Positions 2,577-52,571 of a DNA stretch of 64,000 bases are shown here, piece after piece; the first letter of the stretch is position 1; every line of letters begins with the position of its first letter. Under the pieces are notes generated by a model. The model had not been told where the DNA came from. It did not search any database and saw only the letters and a program-made list of their open reading frames with translations. The position numbers and the translations under genes are program-made. The stretch lies in NCBI GenBank assembly GCA_018820315.1, contig JAHJOQ010000073.1:81281-145280 (forward strand), in the 5' to 3' direction. Source of the DNA: Candidatus Zixiibacteriota bacterium (GTDB lineage Bacteria > Zixibacteria > MSB-5A5 > JAABVY01 > JAHJOQ01).

Positions 2577-3755
2577 ATGAGCATATTCGTTGATGGAAAG
2601 ACTAAGATCGTTGTGCAGGGAATAACCGGTCGTGACGGTTCATTCCATGCGAAACAGATGAAGGAATACGGTTCAAAGGTCGTCGCCGGTGTAACGCCGG
2701 GCAAGGGCGGCCAGAATCTCGACGGCATTCCGATTTTTAATACGGTTGAGGATGCGGTGAGAGCGACCGGCGCCAACACTTCGGTGATTTACGTTCCGGT
2801 GGCGTTTGCAATCGATGCAATCTATGAAGCAGCAGATGCTGGCGCGAAGCTAATCGTCTGCATTACCGAGGGTGTTCCGGCGAATGACATGCTGAATGTC
2901 TACAATTATCTGAAGGACAAAGACTGCCGCCTTATCGGCCCGAATTGCCCCGGAATCATCAGCCCCGGCAAGACGAAAGTCGGCATCATGCCTGGTCACA
3001 TCAGCAAGCCTGGCAAGGTCGGAGTCGTATCACGCTCCGGCACGTTGACATATGAAGTCGTATACAATCTCACGCTCGCCGGGCTCGGTCAGTCGACCTG
3101 TATCGGAATTGGCGGCGATCAGATCATCGGGACGAATTTTATTGATTGTCTGGAAGCATTCCAGGCTGATCCGGCGACTGAAGCGATTGTCATGATCGGT
3201 GAGATAGGCGGCTCTGACGAAGAGGAGGCCGCTGCATACATCAAGAAGAACGTAACAAAGCCGGTCGTCTCGTTCATTGCGGGTCAGACTGCGCCTCCGG
3301 GGAAGCGCATGGGACATGCAGGCGCGATAATTTCCGGCGGTACCGGTACTGCTGCGGACAAGGTAAAGGCGTTGAATGCAGCCGGTATTCCAGTTGCTGA
3401 AACTCCGGCACAGGTCGCTACAGTCATGGCAGAGCTGATCGCAAAGTCCAAAGCGGCAAGAAAGAAGACTGCTAAGCCGGCAAAGAAGAAAGCAGCGAAG
3501 AAAACAGTCAAGAAGGTCGTGAAGAAAGTAGCTAAGAAGGCGGCTAAGAAGACTGTCAAAAAGGTTGCGAAAAAGAAGGCTGCAAAGAAGGCCCCCAAGG
3601 CTACAAAGAAAGTAGTCAAGAAGGTCTCAAAGAAGGCAGCGACCAAGAAGAAGTCTGTGAAGAAAGCTATCAAGAAAACTGCAAAGAAGATAACAAAGAA
3701 AACGTCCAAGAAGACGACCGCGCGCTCTCGTAAGACATCGGGCAAGCGCAAATAG
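2577..3755 (+). CDS. sucD: Succinyl-CoA synthetase alpha subunit with a ~103 aa C-terminal Lys/Ala-rich histone-H1-like extension
   Basis: The core (~289 aa) has the CoA-binding and citrate-lyase-like motifs ([18 protein letters not shown]). The tail is [18 protein letters not shown]... to the stop codon. The likely start is ATG at 2577 (MSIFVDGK), downstream of the track start at 2550. Confidence 0.9.
3444..3755 (+). repeat. Low-complexity imperfect tandem AAG/AAA-GCN-rich coding repeat encoding the SucD K/A-rich tail
   Basis: Visible DNA periodicity (aagaaggtcgtgaagaaagtagctaagaaggcggctaagaag...). The antisense ORFs on this stretch (Phe-rich) are artefacts of the repeat. Confidence 0.8.
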
Positions 3756-6734: not shown

Positions 6735-7985
6735 ATGATGACAATTAGAATTCCATATGGCGACGACAAGCTGGAGATCACCGTGCCGGATGAACACTTT
6801 GGCGGATTGATCGAACAGAAGCGTCAGGTAGCTGCGAGGAACGTGTCATCTCTCATCAAGGATTCGCTCGCTGCTGATCGACTTGGAGAGTTTCTCGGAG
6901 ATTCGACCAGAGTTCTTGTTGTTGTGAATGACTCCTATCGGTGGACGCCATCGCATCTTGTGCTCGCGGAGCTGAGTCAATACTTGAGAAAGATTTCAGA
7001 CGTGCGATTAATCGTGGCAACCGGCCTGCACAGAAAGCCTACTGATTCCGAAATCGACAGGATTCTGGGAGATGGGTGCGATATTTCCCGGTCCGGGATC
7101 GCATACTCAGATGCGTACGACGCAGATCAATTCGACTGCATCGGCAAGTGGAGGAGCGGCAAAGATGTTCTTGTGCACAAGCTGTTCGGCTGGGCTGAGA
7201 AGGTGATTGTGATCAGCTCCGTGGAACCGCACTACTTTGCTGGTTTCTCAGGCGGCCCGAAGTCTTTTGTACCCGGACTCGCGCACAAGAGTACTATTGA
7301 AGCGAATCACTCTCTCGCTGTCAGCAGTGACTGCCAGCCTTGCATTCTCGAGGGCAACCCTTTTGCAGAGTCGCTCAGGGAGGCTGTCGATCTGCTCGAT
7401 TTGTCGAGAGTCTACGCGATTCAGCTCGTCTTGAACACGCACGAGGATGTTGTTGGCGTGTTCACCGGCGATCTGTGGAGCAGTTTCGGCCGGGCGGTCG
7501 ATTGCGCGAGATCGGTATTCGTCGAGAAAGTCGATCGTCAGTATCCGGTTGTAGTTGCAGTCAATTCGCCTCCGCTTGACAGGAATCTCTATCAGATGCA
7601 GAAAGTGTATGAGAATACGAAAGGTTTGGTGATGGATGGAGGTTCGATCATTGTCGTCTCGAAATGCCAGGAAGGCGTCGGCAATGATGAGTTCCTGAAT
7701 CTCGCCGCCAAGTATCCTGAGCCTCAGGATGTTCTTAACGCCAAGGTCGAGGGATGGAGTCTCGGTTTCCACAAGCTGTACAGAACTGCGTTGGCGAAGA
7801 AAAGAATCAGCATATTTGCCAAGACTGATGTCGATCCGGAAATTGTCCGACGTGTGTATCTCGATCCGATCGATGATCTGCAGTCGAAGATCAATGAAGA
7901 ATTAGAGAAGTTTGGAAAAGAGTCAAAGGTAATGTTTATATTGGATGCAGGCCATGTCGTTCCACACGTGGATCGGGCCGCATAG
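6735..7985 (+). CDS. LarA-family (nickel-pincer nucleotide-dependent) 2-hydroxyacid racemase/epimerase homolog
   Basis: N-terminal DUF2088-like region (IPYGDDKLEITVPDE...LVVVNDSYRWTP), GLHRKPT motif and HYFAGFSGGPKSFVPGLAHKSTIEANH. These match the LarA cofactor-anchoring Lys/His region (HYFAGFSGGRKS in L. plantarum LarA), recalled from memory. Confidence 0.65.
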   Translation: MMTIRIPYGDDKLEITVPDEHFGGLIEQKRQVAARNVSSLIKDSLAADRLGEFLGDSTRVLVVVNDSYRWTPSHLVLAELSQYLRKISDVRLIVATGLHRKPTDSEIDRILGDGCDISRSGIAYSDAYDADQFDCIGKWRSGKDVLVHKLFGWAEKVIVISSVEPHYFAGFSGGPKSFVPGLAHKSTIEANHSLAVSSDCQPCILEGNPFAESLREAVDLLDLSRVYAIQLVLNTHEDVVGVFTGDLWSSFGRAVDCARSVFVEKVDRQYPVVVAVNSPPLDRNLYQMQKVYENTKGLVMDGGSIIVVSKCQEGVGNDEFLNLAAKYPEPQDVLNAKVEGWSLGFHKLYRTALAKKRISIFAKTDVDPEIVRRVYLDPIDDLQSKINEELEKFGKESKVMFILDAGHVVPHVDRAA

Positions 7986-39931: not shown

Positions 39932-41086
39932 ATGATCAGCTTTGCTGAAGACTATCTTAACAAAGCCCGGATCAAAGTGGTCGGCGTCGGGGGAGCAGGC
40001 AACAACGCAGTCAATCGCATGATCGATGCAGGTCTGGTTGGGGTCGAGTTCTTGGCGATCAACACTGACGCCCAGACGCTGGAGGGCTCGAAATGTGCGA
40101 ACAAAGTGCAGATCGGTAGCCGCTGCACAAAAGGCCTTGGAGCCGGAGCCGATCCGGAAATCGGTCGAAAGGCTATCGAAGAGGACCGGGAACTTGTTGC
40201 TGAAGGGTTCAGTGGCTGCGACATGGTGTTTGTCACCGCAGGCATGGGCGGCGGAACCGGCACCGGCGCGGCACCGATCGTCGCTGAGATCGCTCGCGAA
40301 GTCGGTGCTCTCACTGTGGCTGTCGTTACGAAGCCGTTCACTTTTGAAGGGAAGAAGCGTCTTAACAAGGCGCTGCTCGGCATCGACGAATTGAAGAGCC
40401 GTGTAGACACGATGATCGTAATTCCGAATCAGCGACTCATCGAAGTCGTCGACAAGGGCACGACGTTCACTCAGGCATTCCTGATGGCTGACGAGACCCT
40501 GCTGCACGCGACACGCGGAATATCGGATCTCATCACAATCCCCGGAATTATCAACTGCGATTTTGCCGATGTGAGAACCGTGATGCGCGGCAGGGGAGAG
40601 GCTTTGATGGGAACCGGTTTCGGCGAGGGCGAGAATGCCGGTGCCGATGCTGCCAAAGCAGCTATCAATTCACCACTGTTGGAGAACACCTGCATATCCG
40701 GTGCGAAGGGCGTTTTGATCAATGTCTGCGGTGGCGAGAACATGACTCTCACGCAGGTCAACGATGCGACAAACGTGATTTATGATGCTGCCGGAAGCGA
40801 TGCCGAAATCATATTCGGCGCGGTGATTGATCCGACTCTCGGCGACGAGATGCGCGTAACGGTTATCGCCACCGGATTCGGCAGATATGAGAAAGAGGTT
40901 TACGATTACGATACCAATGTTGTCGATCTGTTTCATCAGCAACGGGTTGCCTCGACACAAGAGGTCGTGACAATATCGAGAGATAAGAGGGTTGCGGTAG
41001 GTGCCGAGATGGTTCATGCCGGCGATATCGATCGCGACGATCTCGAGGTGCCGACGTTTCTGAGAAAGGCTATCGACAACAGGTAA
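39932..41086 (+). CDS. ftsZ: Cell division GTPase FtsZ
   Basis: Tubulin signature GGGTGTG ([17 protein letters not shown]) and the T7 loop NxDFAD. Confidence 0.95.
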
Positions 41087-41129
41087 TTAGTCCCACCCTG
41101 TTCCTCAACCAGCCGAGGATAGGGATAAC

Positions 41130-41159
41130 GAGAGCCTCCGCACCCACTCGGAGGCTCTC
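41130..41159. repeat. GC-rich perfect hairpin (11 bp stem) downstream of ftsZ at the edge of the REP/RAYT insertion
   Basis: GAGAGCCTCCGcacccactCGGAGGCTCTC. No convincing U-tract follows, so terminator function is uncertain. Confidence 0.4.
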
Positions 41160-41206
41160 ACCTGATGGTCTTCTGCAAGACACGCTGCTCATGCTCTGAT
41201 ACAACG

Positions 41207-41230
41207 CCGTCAGGAATCCTTTCCTGACGG
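41207..41230. repeat. REP palindrome copy 1 (CCGTCAGGAA-tcct-TTCCTGACGG)
   Basis: Perfect 10 bp inverted arms around a 4 nt loop. Overlaps the 3' end of the RAYT gene. Confidence 0.85.
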
Positions 41231-41797
41231 AATCCCACCGTAACCAATGCACGTCCATTCACTGTCAACGGGAATCAATATGTCCTCCCTGCCACCATAT
41301 GCTGACGCGCTCGAGTACCGCCACTGCCACGGTTCCTCAACCAGACCCTTACGAACAGGGTTGTTATGAATGTACTCAATCTTCTGTCGCAAGATATCCT
41401 CAGATGAGATCACCAGACTATCGAACCGTGGCTTCCATAGAGCCGATCCCTTCCCCGATTCGCGCGCTGTGGCGCGCCGAGCGCGGCAGATAGTCTCCTG
41501 TATGTCTGGCCCCGCGTCCAGCCGCCCGATTTGTCTTGCTGTGTAGCGTTTGAGGTTGCCGACTATTTCAGAGATTGTCTTGTCCTCTGCCCGTTTGACG
41601 ATCATGTGGAAGTGATTCGCCATCAGAACCCATGCCAACAGAGTGAAATCACCTCGCCTCTGACAGAAGCGAAGACAGTCGACGAAGATGGCACATGTCT
41701 GCTTGTTATTGAATACGTTGATGAATCCCGCCACTGTGGATGTTACGAAGTGCACTTTTCCGTGGACATCGAAAAGTGCACGGTCGCGGCTTCTCAA
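41210..41797 (-). mobile_element. REP-associated tyrosine transposase (RAYT; IS200/IS605 TnpA-like Y1 HUH transposase)
   Basis: HUH motif (MANHFHMIV), a conserved downstream Tyr region (WQ..FD...I...KIEYIHNNPVRKGLVEEPWQWRYSS), ~190 aa, flanked by REP hairpins. Confidence 0.85.
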
Positions 41798-41814
41798 TTA
41801 CGCCTCCTTTGTTT

Positions 41815-41837
41815 CGTCAGGAATTCTTTCCTGGCGG
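41815..41837. repeat. REP palindrome copy 2 (CGTCAGGAA-ttct-TTCCTGGCGG; one arm mismatch)
   Basis: Immediately upstream of the RAYT start, 24 bp from copy 3. Confidence 0.75.
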
Positions 41838-41861
41838 AATGCTGCTGGGTCAGCACTTGTG

Positions 41862-41885
41862 CCGTCAGGAATCCCTTCCTGACGG
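41862..41885. repeat. REP palindrome copy 3 (CCGTCAGGAA-tccc-TTCCTGACGG)
   Basis: Perfect copy that overlaps the 3' end of the HEPN-like ORF. Confidence 0.85.
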
Positions 41886-42470
41886 CTCCGGGGAATCAGT
41901 CATTTGTGAAGAGCTATCGTCCCGAGTCCCGCTTTGCAGTTCTTTAGTACTTTGGAGAGGTTCCATGACCCATCCAACGGCTCGGTGTACATACGTGGAT
42001 TCAAGAGCAGGCGGCGGTGGTTTGATGTTTTTCATTGAGTATCCCCAGTCGCTCACGAGATTGTGCGCTGCGGCGAGATCATTGGCGGCCTCTCGTAGCG
42101 TGGAGATTCGTGCGGATAGTCTCAAATCGTCATTACTGGGAAAGTACCACAGAAGAGCTGCATCGTGAGCAATATAGTTCCGGGCAAGTCTCGCCATGTC
42201 GAGCAGTGACAGATTGCCTTCCGTTGTTCCGTGCACATTGCCATACTTCTTCACGGCGTTGGCAAGCCGGTTCTCCATCGTCTTCTCCGCTATATTCTGC
42301 CAAGTGTCAAGGTCTTGTTCTTTGCCTTCTCTGACGCCTTTGACAAAGTCAAAAAGGCAAAGGACATCCTTGCATGTATACTCAAAATGCTGACTCAGCA
42401 CCAACGCTCGGCCCACTGCTGCAAGGTAGTTCAGCTCACAACTGCTCGCTTTGCTGAAATCAATCCACAT
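41865..42470 (-). CDS. Hypothetical protein with a HEPN-type RNxxxH motif (candidate HEPN RNase / Abi-like cargo)
   Basis: The RNYIAH segment (RNxxxH; HEPN consensus is R-x4-6-H, often RN-x3-H) lies in a predicted helical context (LLDMARLARNYIAHDAALLWYF), 201 aa. The ORF is bounded by inverted REP copies 3 and 4. No recognisable partner gene. Confidence 0.4.
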   Translation of the reverse strand: MWIDFSKASSCELNYLAAVGRALVLSQHFEYTCKDVLCLFDFVKGVREGKEQDLDTWQNIAEKTMENRLANAVKKYGNVHGTTEGNLSLLDMARLARNYIAHDAALLWYFPSNDDLRLSARISTLREAANDLAAAHNLVSDWGYSMKNIKPPPPALESTYVHRAVGWVMEPLQSTKELQSGTRDDSSSQMTDSPEPSGRDS

Positions 42471-42505
42471 ACAACGTCCTCAGCTTTGCATTGTTCTTTG
42501 CGATT

Positions 42506-42529
42506 CCGTCAGGAAGGGATTCCTGACGG
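42506..42529. repeat. REP palindrome copy 4 (CCGTCAGGAA-ggga-TTCCTGACGG; inverted relative to copies 1-3)
   Basis: The loop is the reverse complement of the copy 3 loop, so copies 3 and 4 form an inverted pair around the cargo ORF. Confidence 0.85.
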
Positions 42530-42627
42530 CGCATTTGCCGTTGCGTCTCTTGCTGTGCCCCTGTTGCTCTGCCGCGTATTCTTAATCAGTTCATTATATC
42601 GATAACCAGTGCGTCGCGCAATCACAA

Positions 42628-42659
42628 ACGCAAAAAACCCCCGGCATGCCGAGGGTTTT
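42628..42659 (-). terminator. Rho-independent terminator downstream of rpmB
   Basis: AAAACCCUCGGCAUGCCGGGGGUUUUUU on the minus strand, directly after the rpmB stop. Confidence 0.7.
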
Positions 42660-42681: not shown

Positions 42682-42873
42682 TTATGCGGCTTTGGTGACT
42701 TTGCCTGCTTTGAGGCAGGAAGAGCAGACTCTGATCTTCTTCGTCTGTCCGTTGATCTTCGCGCGCACCGGATGAAGATTCGGGTTGAATCTCCGGTTGC
42801 TCACATTGTGCGCGTGAGAGATCGTAGAGCCGAACATCGGCTTCTTTCCGCATATGTCACAAACTTTCGCCAT
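42682..42873 (-). CDS. rpmB: 50S ribosomal protein L28
   Basis: [15 protein letters not shown]...[14 protein letters not shown], 63 aa. Confidence 0.93.
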
Positions 42874-50945: not shown

Positions 50946-51218
50946 TGACCCGTGCACCCACCTCCGATCCCGCTGACCTAACAACGGTACGGCCAGTTAG
51001 CTCAGGTCAAGCTTCCCCGCATCACACTCAAAGACATGCTTACCGCTGCTTCCTTCCGGACCTGACGGGATTGGGCAGCCTCAAGTTGCACGGGACCTGA
51101 CCGTCAACACCACTTAACCGGGCCGTGCAAGCTGCTGACGGACCTCGGGTGGGCATCAGTCCCGGTATAGCGGATTCCGGGTAACAGGGCACCGCTAGCT
51201 CCCCACTTAGCACGGGAA
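50946..51218 (-). ncRNA. ffs: Signal recognition particle RNA, long (Bacillus/Alu-domain-containing) form
   Basis: The minus-strand sequence contains the domain IV motif GUCAGGUCCGGAAGGAAGCAGCGGUAAG. A 5' Alu-domain segment GUGCUAAGUGGGGAGCUAGCGGUGCCCUGUUACC... closely resembles B. subtilis scRNA as recalled from memory. The 3' end ...GGUGGGUGCACGGG abuts the dnaX start, the classic ffs-dnaX arrangement. Confidence 0.8.
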
Positions 51219-52496: not shown

Positions 52497-52571
52497 GGTG
52501 GAGCAGAGCGGGCTCGAACCGCCGACCTGTACGTTGCGAACGTACCGCTCTCCCAGCTGAGCTACTGCCCC
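52496..52571 (-). tRNA. tRNA-Ala (anticodon CGC), CCA encoded
   Basis: GGGGCAGUAGCUCAGCUGGGAGAGC...anticodon loop UUCGCAA...GGUUCGAGCC...CUGCUCCACCA, with the G3:U70 alanine identity pair and a canonical cloverleaf. Confidence 0.9.

Follow-up and report, generated by a model that had tools for sequence, protein, structure and literature searches.

A REP-associated tyrosine transposase gene, its REP sequences and a HEPN-like gene between ftsZ and rpmB in a Candidatus Zixiibacteriota genome

A 64,000-nucleotide stretch of a Candidatus Zixiibacteriota genome (GenBank assembly GCA_018820315.1, contig JAHJOQ010000073.1, positions 81,281 to 145,280 of the forward strand; hereafter the window, numbered from its first nucleotide) carries a strain-variable block between ftsZ and rpmB. 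The block holds a gene for a REP-associated tyrosine transposase (RAYT), four copies of a repetitive extragenic palindrome (REP), and an open reading frame (ORF) for a 201 aa protein with a HEPN-type signature. We favor, with moderate confidence, the reading that the block is a REPtron together with a HEPN-like accessory gene in a variable slot, the two genes being paired by local accident rather than as a conserved system. Copies of the palindrome in related genomes show it to be a genuine, dispersed REP family, and the same slot holds different genes in a sister strain. Coordinates of all features are collected in Table 1.

A RAYT gene bordered by its own REPs

The 195 aa transposase passes the NCBIfam equivalog model REP_Tyr_transpos (NF047646; 113.5 bits against a cut-off of 80), fails the IS200 model (NF033573; 21.6 bits against a cut-off of 55), and matches Pfam Y1_Tnp with 37.7 bits. 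Residues H62-F-H64 and Y142-I-H-N-N146-P-V align with those of Escherichia coli TnpA-REP (PDB 4er8). The asparagine four positions after the tyrosine (Y+4) sets TnpA-REP apart from the TnpA of IS200/IS605, which has glutamine there (PMC3333891). The gene encodes a true RAYT whose catalytic residues are intact. An earlier note, made from the DNA letters alone, had called the transposase one of the RAYT type and proposed profile or structure searches as a check. The call holds: the RAYT cut-off is passed, and HUH, Tyr142 and Asn146 are present in the alignment to 4er8. The gene has a single genomic context on record and is bordered by its own REPs, with copies 1 and 2 adjacent to it and copies 1 and 4 forming an inverted pair.

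The palindrome, CCGTCAGGAA-N4-TTCCTGACGG, is present in the block as three exact 24 bp copies (from 41207, 41862 and 42506) and one copy with two mismatches (from 41814), at the four places that had been reported. No match was obtained in 100 sequence shuffles. A fifth copy was not found in the 64 kb window even at five mismatches or with loops of 3–6 nt, and the palindrome is the sole real dispersed repeat of the window. As single-stranded DNA, the hairpins are stable (−7.7 to −14.6 kcal/mol, z −4.6 to −6.5). The asymmetric loop and the flanks show a direct orientation for copies 1–3 and an inverted one for copy 4, in agreement with the earlier description of copies 1 and 2 as direct around the RAYT gene and of copies 3 and 4 as an inverted pair around the 201 aa ORF. 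Copies 1 and 4 also form a 33-nt inverted pair, 94% complementary, that encloses the whole block.

Both genes are read from the reverse strand. On the coding strand, copy 4 (forward) comes first, followed after 35 nt by the 201 aa ORF with copy 3 (reverse) over its stop codon, then by copy 2 (reverse, degenerate) and, 16 nt on, by the RAYT gene with copy 1 (reverse) over its stop codon. The ORF and copies 3 and 2 are thus interposed between the upstream REP (copy 4) and the RAYT gene, and copy 4, which is the canonical upstream partner of copy 1, is displaced 709 bp from the RAYT start. Copy 2, which adjoins that start, has the orientation opposite to that of the upstream REP at other RAYT loci. 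The TGA within TTCCTGACGG is the stop codon of the RAYT genes in the window and in three other genomic stretches (L021, L071 and L084), so that their C-termini are REP-encoded. Since this TGA serves as the stop, the RAYT of the window ends in PSGKDS* and the 201 aa ORF in PSGRDS*, the latter residues being encoded by copy 3.

A dispersed REP family in Zixibacteria and Ignavibacteria

Genomes, one per species (596 Gb in total), were scanned for exact matches to the palindrome. Matches were found in at least 120 genomic stretches, compared to about 0.5 expected by chance (our own estimate, for 20 fixed bases in 596 Gb). Nearly all of the matches listed are in metagenome-assembled genomes (MAGs) of Zixibacteria and Ignavibacteria. 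The REP is present on at least 19 contigs of the MAG JAJRZO01 and on at least nine contigs of another MAG. The source MAG is not among the matches listed. The palindrome that the earlier note had taken for a REP therefore does occur well beyond this locus, and in both orientations. A few matches fall in other phyla, among them Firmicutes and Actinobacteria; these have no tail of the kind described below and resemble ordinary terminators.

A total of 143 copies from related genomes were oriented by their loops, with 70 forward and 73 reverse. The aligned unit is GCG-CCGTCAGGAA-YCCY-TTCCTGACGG, with a 10-bp stem, an asymmetric loop, and an unpaired 5' GCG tail whose three positions are conserved in 90, 76 and 90% of copies. 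Tandem arrays of three REPs were seen in L070 (25–299) and L119 (1288–1685), with periods of 125 nt and 187 nt, and the array in L119 lies directly upstream of a RAYT gene.

RAYT homologs with 44–67% identity were identified by tblastn in six of the REP-bearing stretches (L021, L071, L084, L101, L119 and L043); a weaker match (30% identity) in L105 has no REP nearby. Except for L043, each of the six has a forward REP 9–18 nt ahead of the RAYT start codon and a reverse REP situated at the stop codon or overlapping it. L043 is cut off downstream and retains the upstream REP only. None of these six loci has an extra gene. The REP stem is near-identical across Zixibacteria and Ignavibacteria while the RAYTs it flanks have diverged to 44–67% identity, which points to either strong co-conservation of protein and DNA site or transfer between phyla.

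A metagenome scan with an extended REP variant returned nine matches, none of them from the source organism. Four contigs of metagenome Ga0209777 carry the REP (L143, L145, L146 and L149), three of them within the longer sequence gcgCCGTCAGGAATCCTTTCCTGACGGaatcgactg. This points to another population, of about 53% G+C, in which a REP or REPIN (REP doublet forming hairpin) subfamily has a lengthened 3' flank. Neither the REP nor the family of the 201 aa ORF was found in viral contigs.

The 201 aa ORF belongs to a family with a HEPN-type signature

A word-indexed search with the 201 aa ORF identified two homologs, and an exhaustive profile search identified 324 cluster representatives (50% identity), typically of about 175 aa. 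The conserved core spans residues 1–183 of the window protein. Its last 17 residues are not conserved, are absent from homologs, and are produced by read-through into REP copy 3. An alignment of 100 family sequences has four invariant residues (E30, R97, N98 and H102), present in the window protein as E30-x3-K34 and R97-N-Y-I-A-H102. The published HEPN signature consists of R-x4-6-H, which lies where a core helix ends and whose arginine is followed by a polar residue, and of an E-x3-[KR] upstream (PMC3710099). Because the invariant residues match it, the family has a HEPN-type signature. It also has a conserved extra C-terminal region (W142, Y160 and W167). The ~175 aa family is real, conserved and previously undescribed. 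One member of 289 aa (P0155) has a C-terminal fusion to DUF6434 (PF20026, 113 bits).

Profile matches point in the same direction, though weakly. The family consensus scores 19.6 bits against DUF4145 (cut-off 23.1, E value 1e-3), and its matches to HEPN_Cthe2314, HEPN_Apea and HEPN_AbiU2 are also just below their Pfam thresholds. Individually, seven of 100 family members match DUF4145, with a best E value of 2e-5. The matches of the family consensus to PHROGs were weak. An AlphaFold2 model built from 31 sequences is confident and all-alpha (predicted local distance difference test 83.9, predicted template modeling score 0.80), with the R-N-x-x-x-H motif inside the helix formed by residues 84–109.

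We consider it quite likely that the protein belongs to the HEPN superfamily, and predict for it the role of a metal-independent RNase of the toxin or abortive-infection kind. It is possible, though unlikely, that it is another helical protein, such as a regulator or a scaffold, in which case the block would be a REPtron beside an unrelated hypothetical gene. Several results count toward this alternative and against our assignment. The window protein is below threshold in all models of Pfam, NCBIfam and PADLOC, HEPN models included. Searches of PDB sequences with the protein and its profile returned no HEPN protein and nothing else of relevance, and hhalign of the family profile against one bona fide DUF4145 protein was negative (0.6% probability). 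Against it, the four residues that are invariant in 100 diverse sequences match the published signature exactly, near the end of a long helix and with an upstream E-x3-K; the best sub-threshold Pfam matches are repeatedly to HEPN-clan models, with the top one (DUF4145) spanning the motif region; and the genomic neighbors are toxin-antitoxin and defense genes. The earlier suggestion of a HEPN-type ORF was thus upheld in part: the RNxxxH motif is present and invariant in the family, while the fold was not confirmed by Foldseek, which returned no significant match to the model, and the Pfam matches remain sub-threshold.

Members of the family are stand-alone accessory genes found in mobile and defense islands. 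The closest homolog of the ORF (P0002) comes after an AF2212-like/PIN toxin-antitoxin pair, and another member (P0163) has Abi_alpha plus a Shedu-type domain on one side and a DDE transposase on the other. Others are close to a PIN/Phd pair, UPF0175 and an IS66 fragment (P0162), or to an integrase, IS66, Mrr and a DUF4145 gene (P0168), and one comes after a DDE_3 transposase gene (P0169). None of the examined homologs has a REP or a RAYT gene beside it, and the position of the 201 aa ORF next to a RAYT gene is unique among the examined loci.

The slot between ftsZ and rpmB varies among strains

Gene order at this junction was compared to that of three relatives with 78–84% FtsZ identity (L131/L132, L135/L136 and L138/L139), all of which have the same order of ftsZ, rpmB and valS. 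In L131, L135 and L138, the spacer between ftsZ and rpmB is short (167–206 bp where rpmB was called) and has no REP. The block is therefore an insertion, as the comparison proposed in the earlier note was meant to decide. Its G+C content equals that of the flanks and so gives no hint that it arrived recently from a foreign source.

A strain of the same species with an identical FtsZ (L133; GCA_043823925.1) has 97–99% identity to the window up to 41166 and again from 42634. Between these points, the two sequences are about 51–54% identical, which is near random, or cannot be aligned. In the same slot (7290–9986 of L133), the strain encodes a 664 aa Old-family ATPase-TOPRIM nuclease (PADLOC Old, 286.6 bits; Pfam AAA_15/AAA_21 and OLD-like_TOPRIM) and an unannotated 213 aa protein with no family match. 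Kinship of the latter with the 201 aa ORF was considered and rejected, as hhalign against the family profile was negative. L133 retains 20 nt at 7266–7285, the left half of REP copy 1 (CGCCGTCAGGAATCCCTTCC), broken within the hairpin arm. At the position of copy 4, it has a decayed candidate REP that no longer forms a stable hairpin. These remnants indicate that the REPs predate the split of the two haplotypes and that the interior was exchanged. The slot is strain-variable and holds accessory genes.

Table 1. Features of the ftsZ–rpmB junction (positions in the window)
Feature	Coordinates	Strand	Remarks
ftsZ	39932..41086	+	end of cell-division cluster, after ftsA
Left anchor: conserved structured element and terminator-like hairpin	41090..41165	+	common to all relatives; outside insertion
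Strain-variable block between the ftsZ and rpmB terminators	41167..42633		from comparison with L133
REP copy 1	41204..41230	+	tail ACG; exact hairpin CCGTCAGGAA-TCCT-TTCCTGACGG at 41207–41230
RAYT/TnpA-REP gene, 195 aa	41210..41797	-	TTG start, AAGGAGG 6 nt upstream
REP copy 2	41814..41837	+	degenerate: two mismatches, no GCG tail
REP copy 3	41859..41885	+	tail GTG; exact hairpin at 41862–41885
201 aa ORF, HEPN-like accessory gene	41865..42470	-	GAGGA 7 nt upstream of ATG
REP copy 4	42506..42532	-	exact hairpin (42506–42529), full GCG tail
Block-specific spacer with possible promoter	42533..42633	-	read from sequence
Right anchor: rpmB intrinsic terminator	42634..42659	-	common to L133
rpmB	42682..42873	-	rpmB and valS converge on ftsZ

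A possible promoter for the 201 aa ORF lies in the block-specific spacer, with TTGCGC (42621–42616) and TATAAT (42598–42593) separated by 17 nt. A consensus promoter scan did not report this candidate, whose −35 hexamer matches at three of six bases. If the promoter is used, REP copy 4 would be in the 5' untranslated region (UTR). The left anchor begins straight after the ftsZ stop codon with a non-coding element of about 45 nt (TCCCACCC..TCCTCAACCAGCCGAGGA..GGGA) that is near-invariant in the relatives and is followed by the terminator-like hairpin, which shows compensatory changes. The element has no Rfam match and may represent a small RNA or a conserved feature of the 3' UTR; Rfam produced no match in or near the block as a whole. 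Elsewhere in the window, Rfam identified a bacterial large signal recognition particle RNA at 50950–51215 (reverse strand, 169.7 bits) and a tRNA gene at 52499–52571 (reverse strand). A coding tandem repeat at 3453–3713, AAGAAR-rich and with a 12-nt period, probably encodes a lysine/alanine-rich, histone-H1-like tail.

A REPtron and an incidental gene, or a mobile unit

In the reading that we favor, a single-copy domesticated HUH-Y1 transposase (RAYT/TnpA-REP) and its cognate REPs would sit in the spacer where the terminators of ftsZ and rpmB converge. Like TnpA-REP of E. coli, the RAYT would bind the folded, single-stranded REP and cut and rejoin DNA at the foot of the REP, and by this cutting and joining would maintain and spread the REPs. 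A stand-alone HEPN-like gene would have lodged by chance, in a crowded accessory slot, between the RAYT gene and copy 4, its canonical upstream REP. On mRNA, the REPs probably have a second role as hairpins at the 5' and 3' ends, and both genes take their stop codons from them. Because homologs of the 201 aa ORF never lie beside a REP or a RAYT gene and other RAYT loci have no extra gene, the pairing is probably incidental. The idea that the ORF is cargo of the RAYT, put forward in the earlier note, is not supported by these observations on the ORF homologs and on the six other RAYT loci with REPs.

Some findings weigh against this account. REPs frame the 201 aa ORF just as they frame RAYT genes, a forward one ahead of the gene and a reverse one covering its stop codon, and this is hard to accept as pure accident. 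In about 48 kb of DNA from relatives, fetched for other purposes, no REP was found outside the locus; together with the same result for the 64 kb window, this means that REPs may be rare in the lineage and that the RAYT may be a relic. The candidate for copy 4 in the sister strain is marginal, with 18 of 25 positions matching and a score that was reached in five of 500 shuffles.

Alternatively, the block may be a composite mobile unit, in which the HEPN-like gene is genuine cargo, moved by a RAYT that acts either on the outer REPs, which are copies 4 and 1, or on copies 4 and 3. It would then be a REPtron acting as a transposon with a toxin or defense gene. Copies 1 and 4 are the best-matched pair and enclose both genes, the ORF lies between a forward and a reverse REP like the RAYT gene at the six other loci, the block is missing from relatives, and members of the ORF family often adjoin transposases. 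An independent Logan assembly (L003; SRR10598174) also gives a 1329-bp contig that consists of REP4-ORF-REP3-REP2-RAYT-REP1 only and breaks at both outer REPs. We nevertheless judge a composite unit quite unlikely. Both proteins have only one genomic context on record, no other RAYT locus has the extra gene, no ORF homolog is flanked by REPs, and L133 is broken within the hairpin arm rather than at the foot of the REP. In the literature, TnpA-REP is described as monomeric and REPtrons as not transposing as whole units (PMC6006769; PMC3479197). The contig breaks are equally explained by the same REP k-mers elsewhere in the metagenome; they fit such repeats or heterogeneity among strains at the slot. 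A small chance that the unit is mobilizable is left by the 1329-bp contig and by the way REPs frame the ORF, and by nothing else.

A related possibility, decidedly improbable in our view, is that the REP-bounded unit is a device for gene capture or exchange, in which the RAYT or recombination between REP hairpins swaps defense genes at the slot next to ftsZ. The HEPN-like gene would then be framed by a forward and a reverse REP because it is a mobilizable cassette, with a HEPN-like RNase held here and an Old-family nuclease in the sister strain. If true, this would give REP/RAYT systems a role in building defense islands. Finally, the reading of the element as an autonomous insertion sequence of the IS200/IS605 type, whose left and right ends would be the REP-like hairpins, and not as a domesticated RAYT, is very improbable and was rejected: the Y1_Tnp match and the direct orientation of copies 2 and 1 around the transposase gene, like IS200/IS605 ends, would suit it, but the IS200 model is below its cut-off while the RAYT model is passed, Y+4 is asparagine and not glutamine (the criterion of PMC3333891), the hairpin is found mostly solitary or in arrays without any transposase gene, and the transposase gene has one context on record.

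Comparison to known systems

The RAYT with its REPs and the HEPN-like gene each add an example to a known kind, with no sign that the two work together. Their pairing appears to be a one-off, and nothing in these findings overturns current views. The HEPN-like proteins define a fairly large uncharacterized family of small proteins and are a reasonable candidate for a stand-alone abortive-infection RNase. They resemble stand-alone HEPN proteins of the DUF4145-like and Abi types (Anantharaman et al. 2013, PMC3710099) in the R-N-x-x-x-H motif, the upstream E-x3-K, the predicted all-alpha fold, the stand-alone gene, and the location in defense, toxin-antitoxin and mobile islands. They differ in that their matches are below Pfam thresholds, in the extra C-terminal region, and in having no MNT, restriction-modification or antitoxin partner.

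The REP itself shares a CGTC at the hairpin foot and a 4-nt loop with the CGTC-tagged REPs (Di Nocera et al. 2013, PMC3733652). The CGTC of the tagged families is unpaired, their stem has 8–9 bp and begins with AT, their tail is CCA, and they are not associated with any RAYT (PMC3733652). The REP described here was rejected as a member of these families, since its CGTC belongs to a 10-bp stem, paired to GACG, its conserved tail is a GCG on the 5' side, and it borders RAYT genes. The REPIN-RAYT systems of Pseudomonas (Bertels and Rainey 2011, PMC3116915) are similar in having a RAYT gene, apparently single-copy here, that is flanked by REPs, with REPs elsewhere in both orientations, in pairs and in arrays. 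Their inverted REP pairs have short spacers, whereas copies 3 and 4 are 620 nt apart and surround a gene.

A RAYT gene flanked by REPs is the arrangement described as a REPtron (PMC3333891, PMC6006769), and the arrangement is thus not without parallel, although the earlier note recognized no described match for the pairing. The E. coli REPtron (tnpA-REP, or yafM, with REPs and bacterial interspersed mosaic elements; Ton-Hoang et al. 2012, PMC3333891; structure 4er8) has the same single Y1 HUH gene bordered by its own REPs, with the same HUH, tyrosine and asparagine at Y+4. The locus described here differs in the GCG tail and 10-bp perfect stem of its REP, where E. coli has a GTAG foot and an imperfect stem, in the extra protein gene within the REP-bounded unit, and in its occurrence in other phyla, which extends REP/RAYT systems to Zixibacteria and Ignavibacteria. 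The 27-nt REP has remained almost unchanged across these groups while the RAYTs diverged to about 47% identity, a clear case of a protein and its DNA site being conserved together. Both loci are strain-polymorphic. In some E. coli, hicAB toxin-antitoxin genes stand in place of the REPtron, or tnpA-REP has been precisely lost (PMC3333891); here, an Old-family cassette is found in the sister strain. The strain-variable accessory slot right after the cell-division cluster thus mirrors the replacement of the REPtron by hicAB in E. coli.

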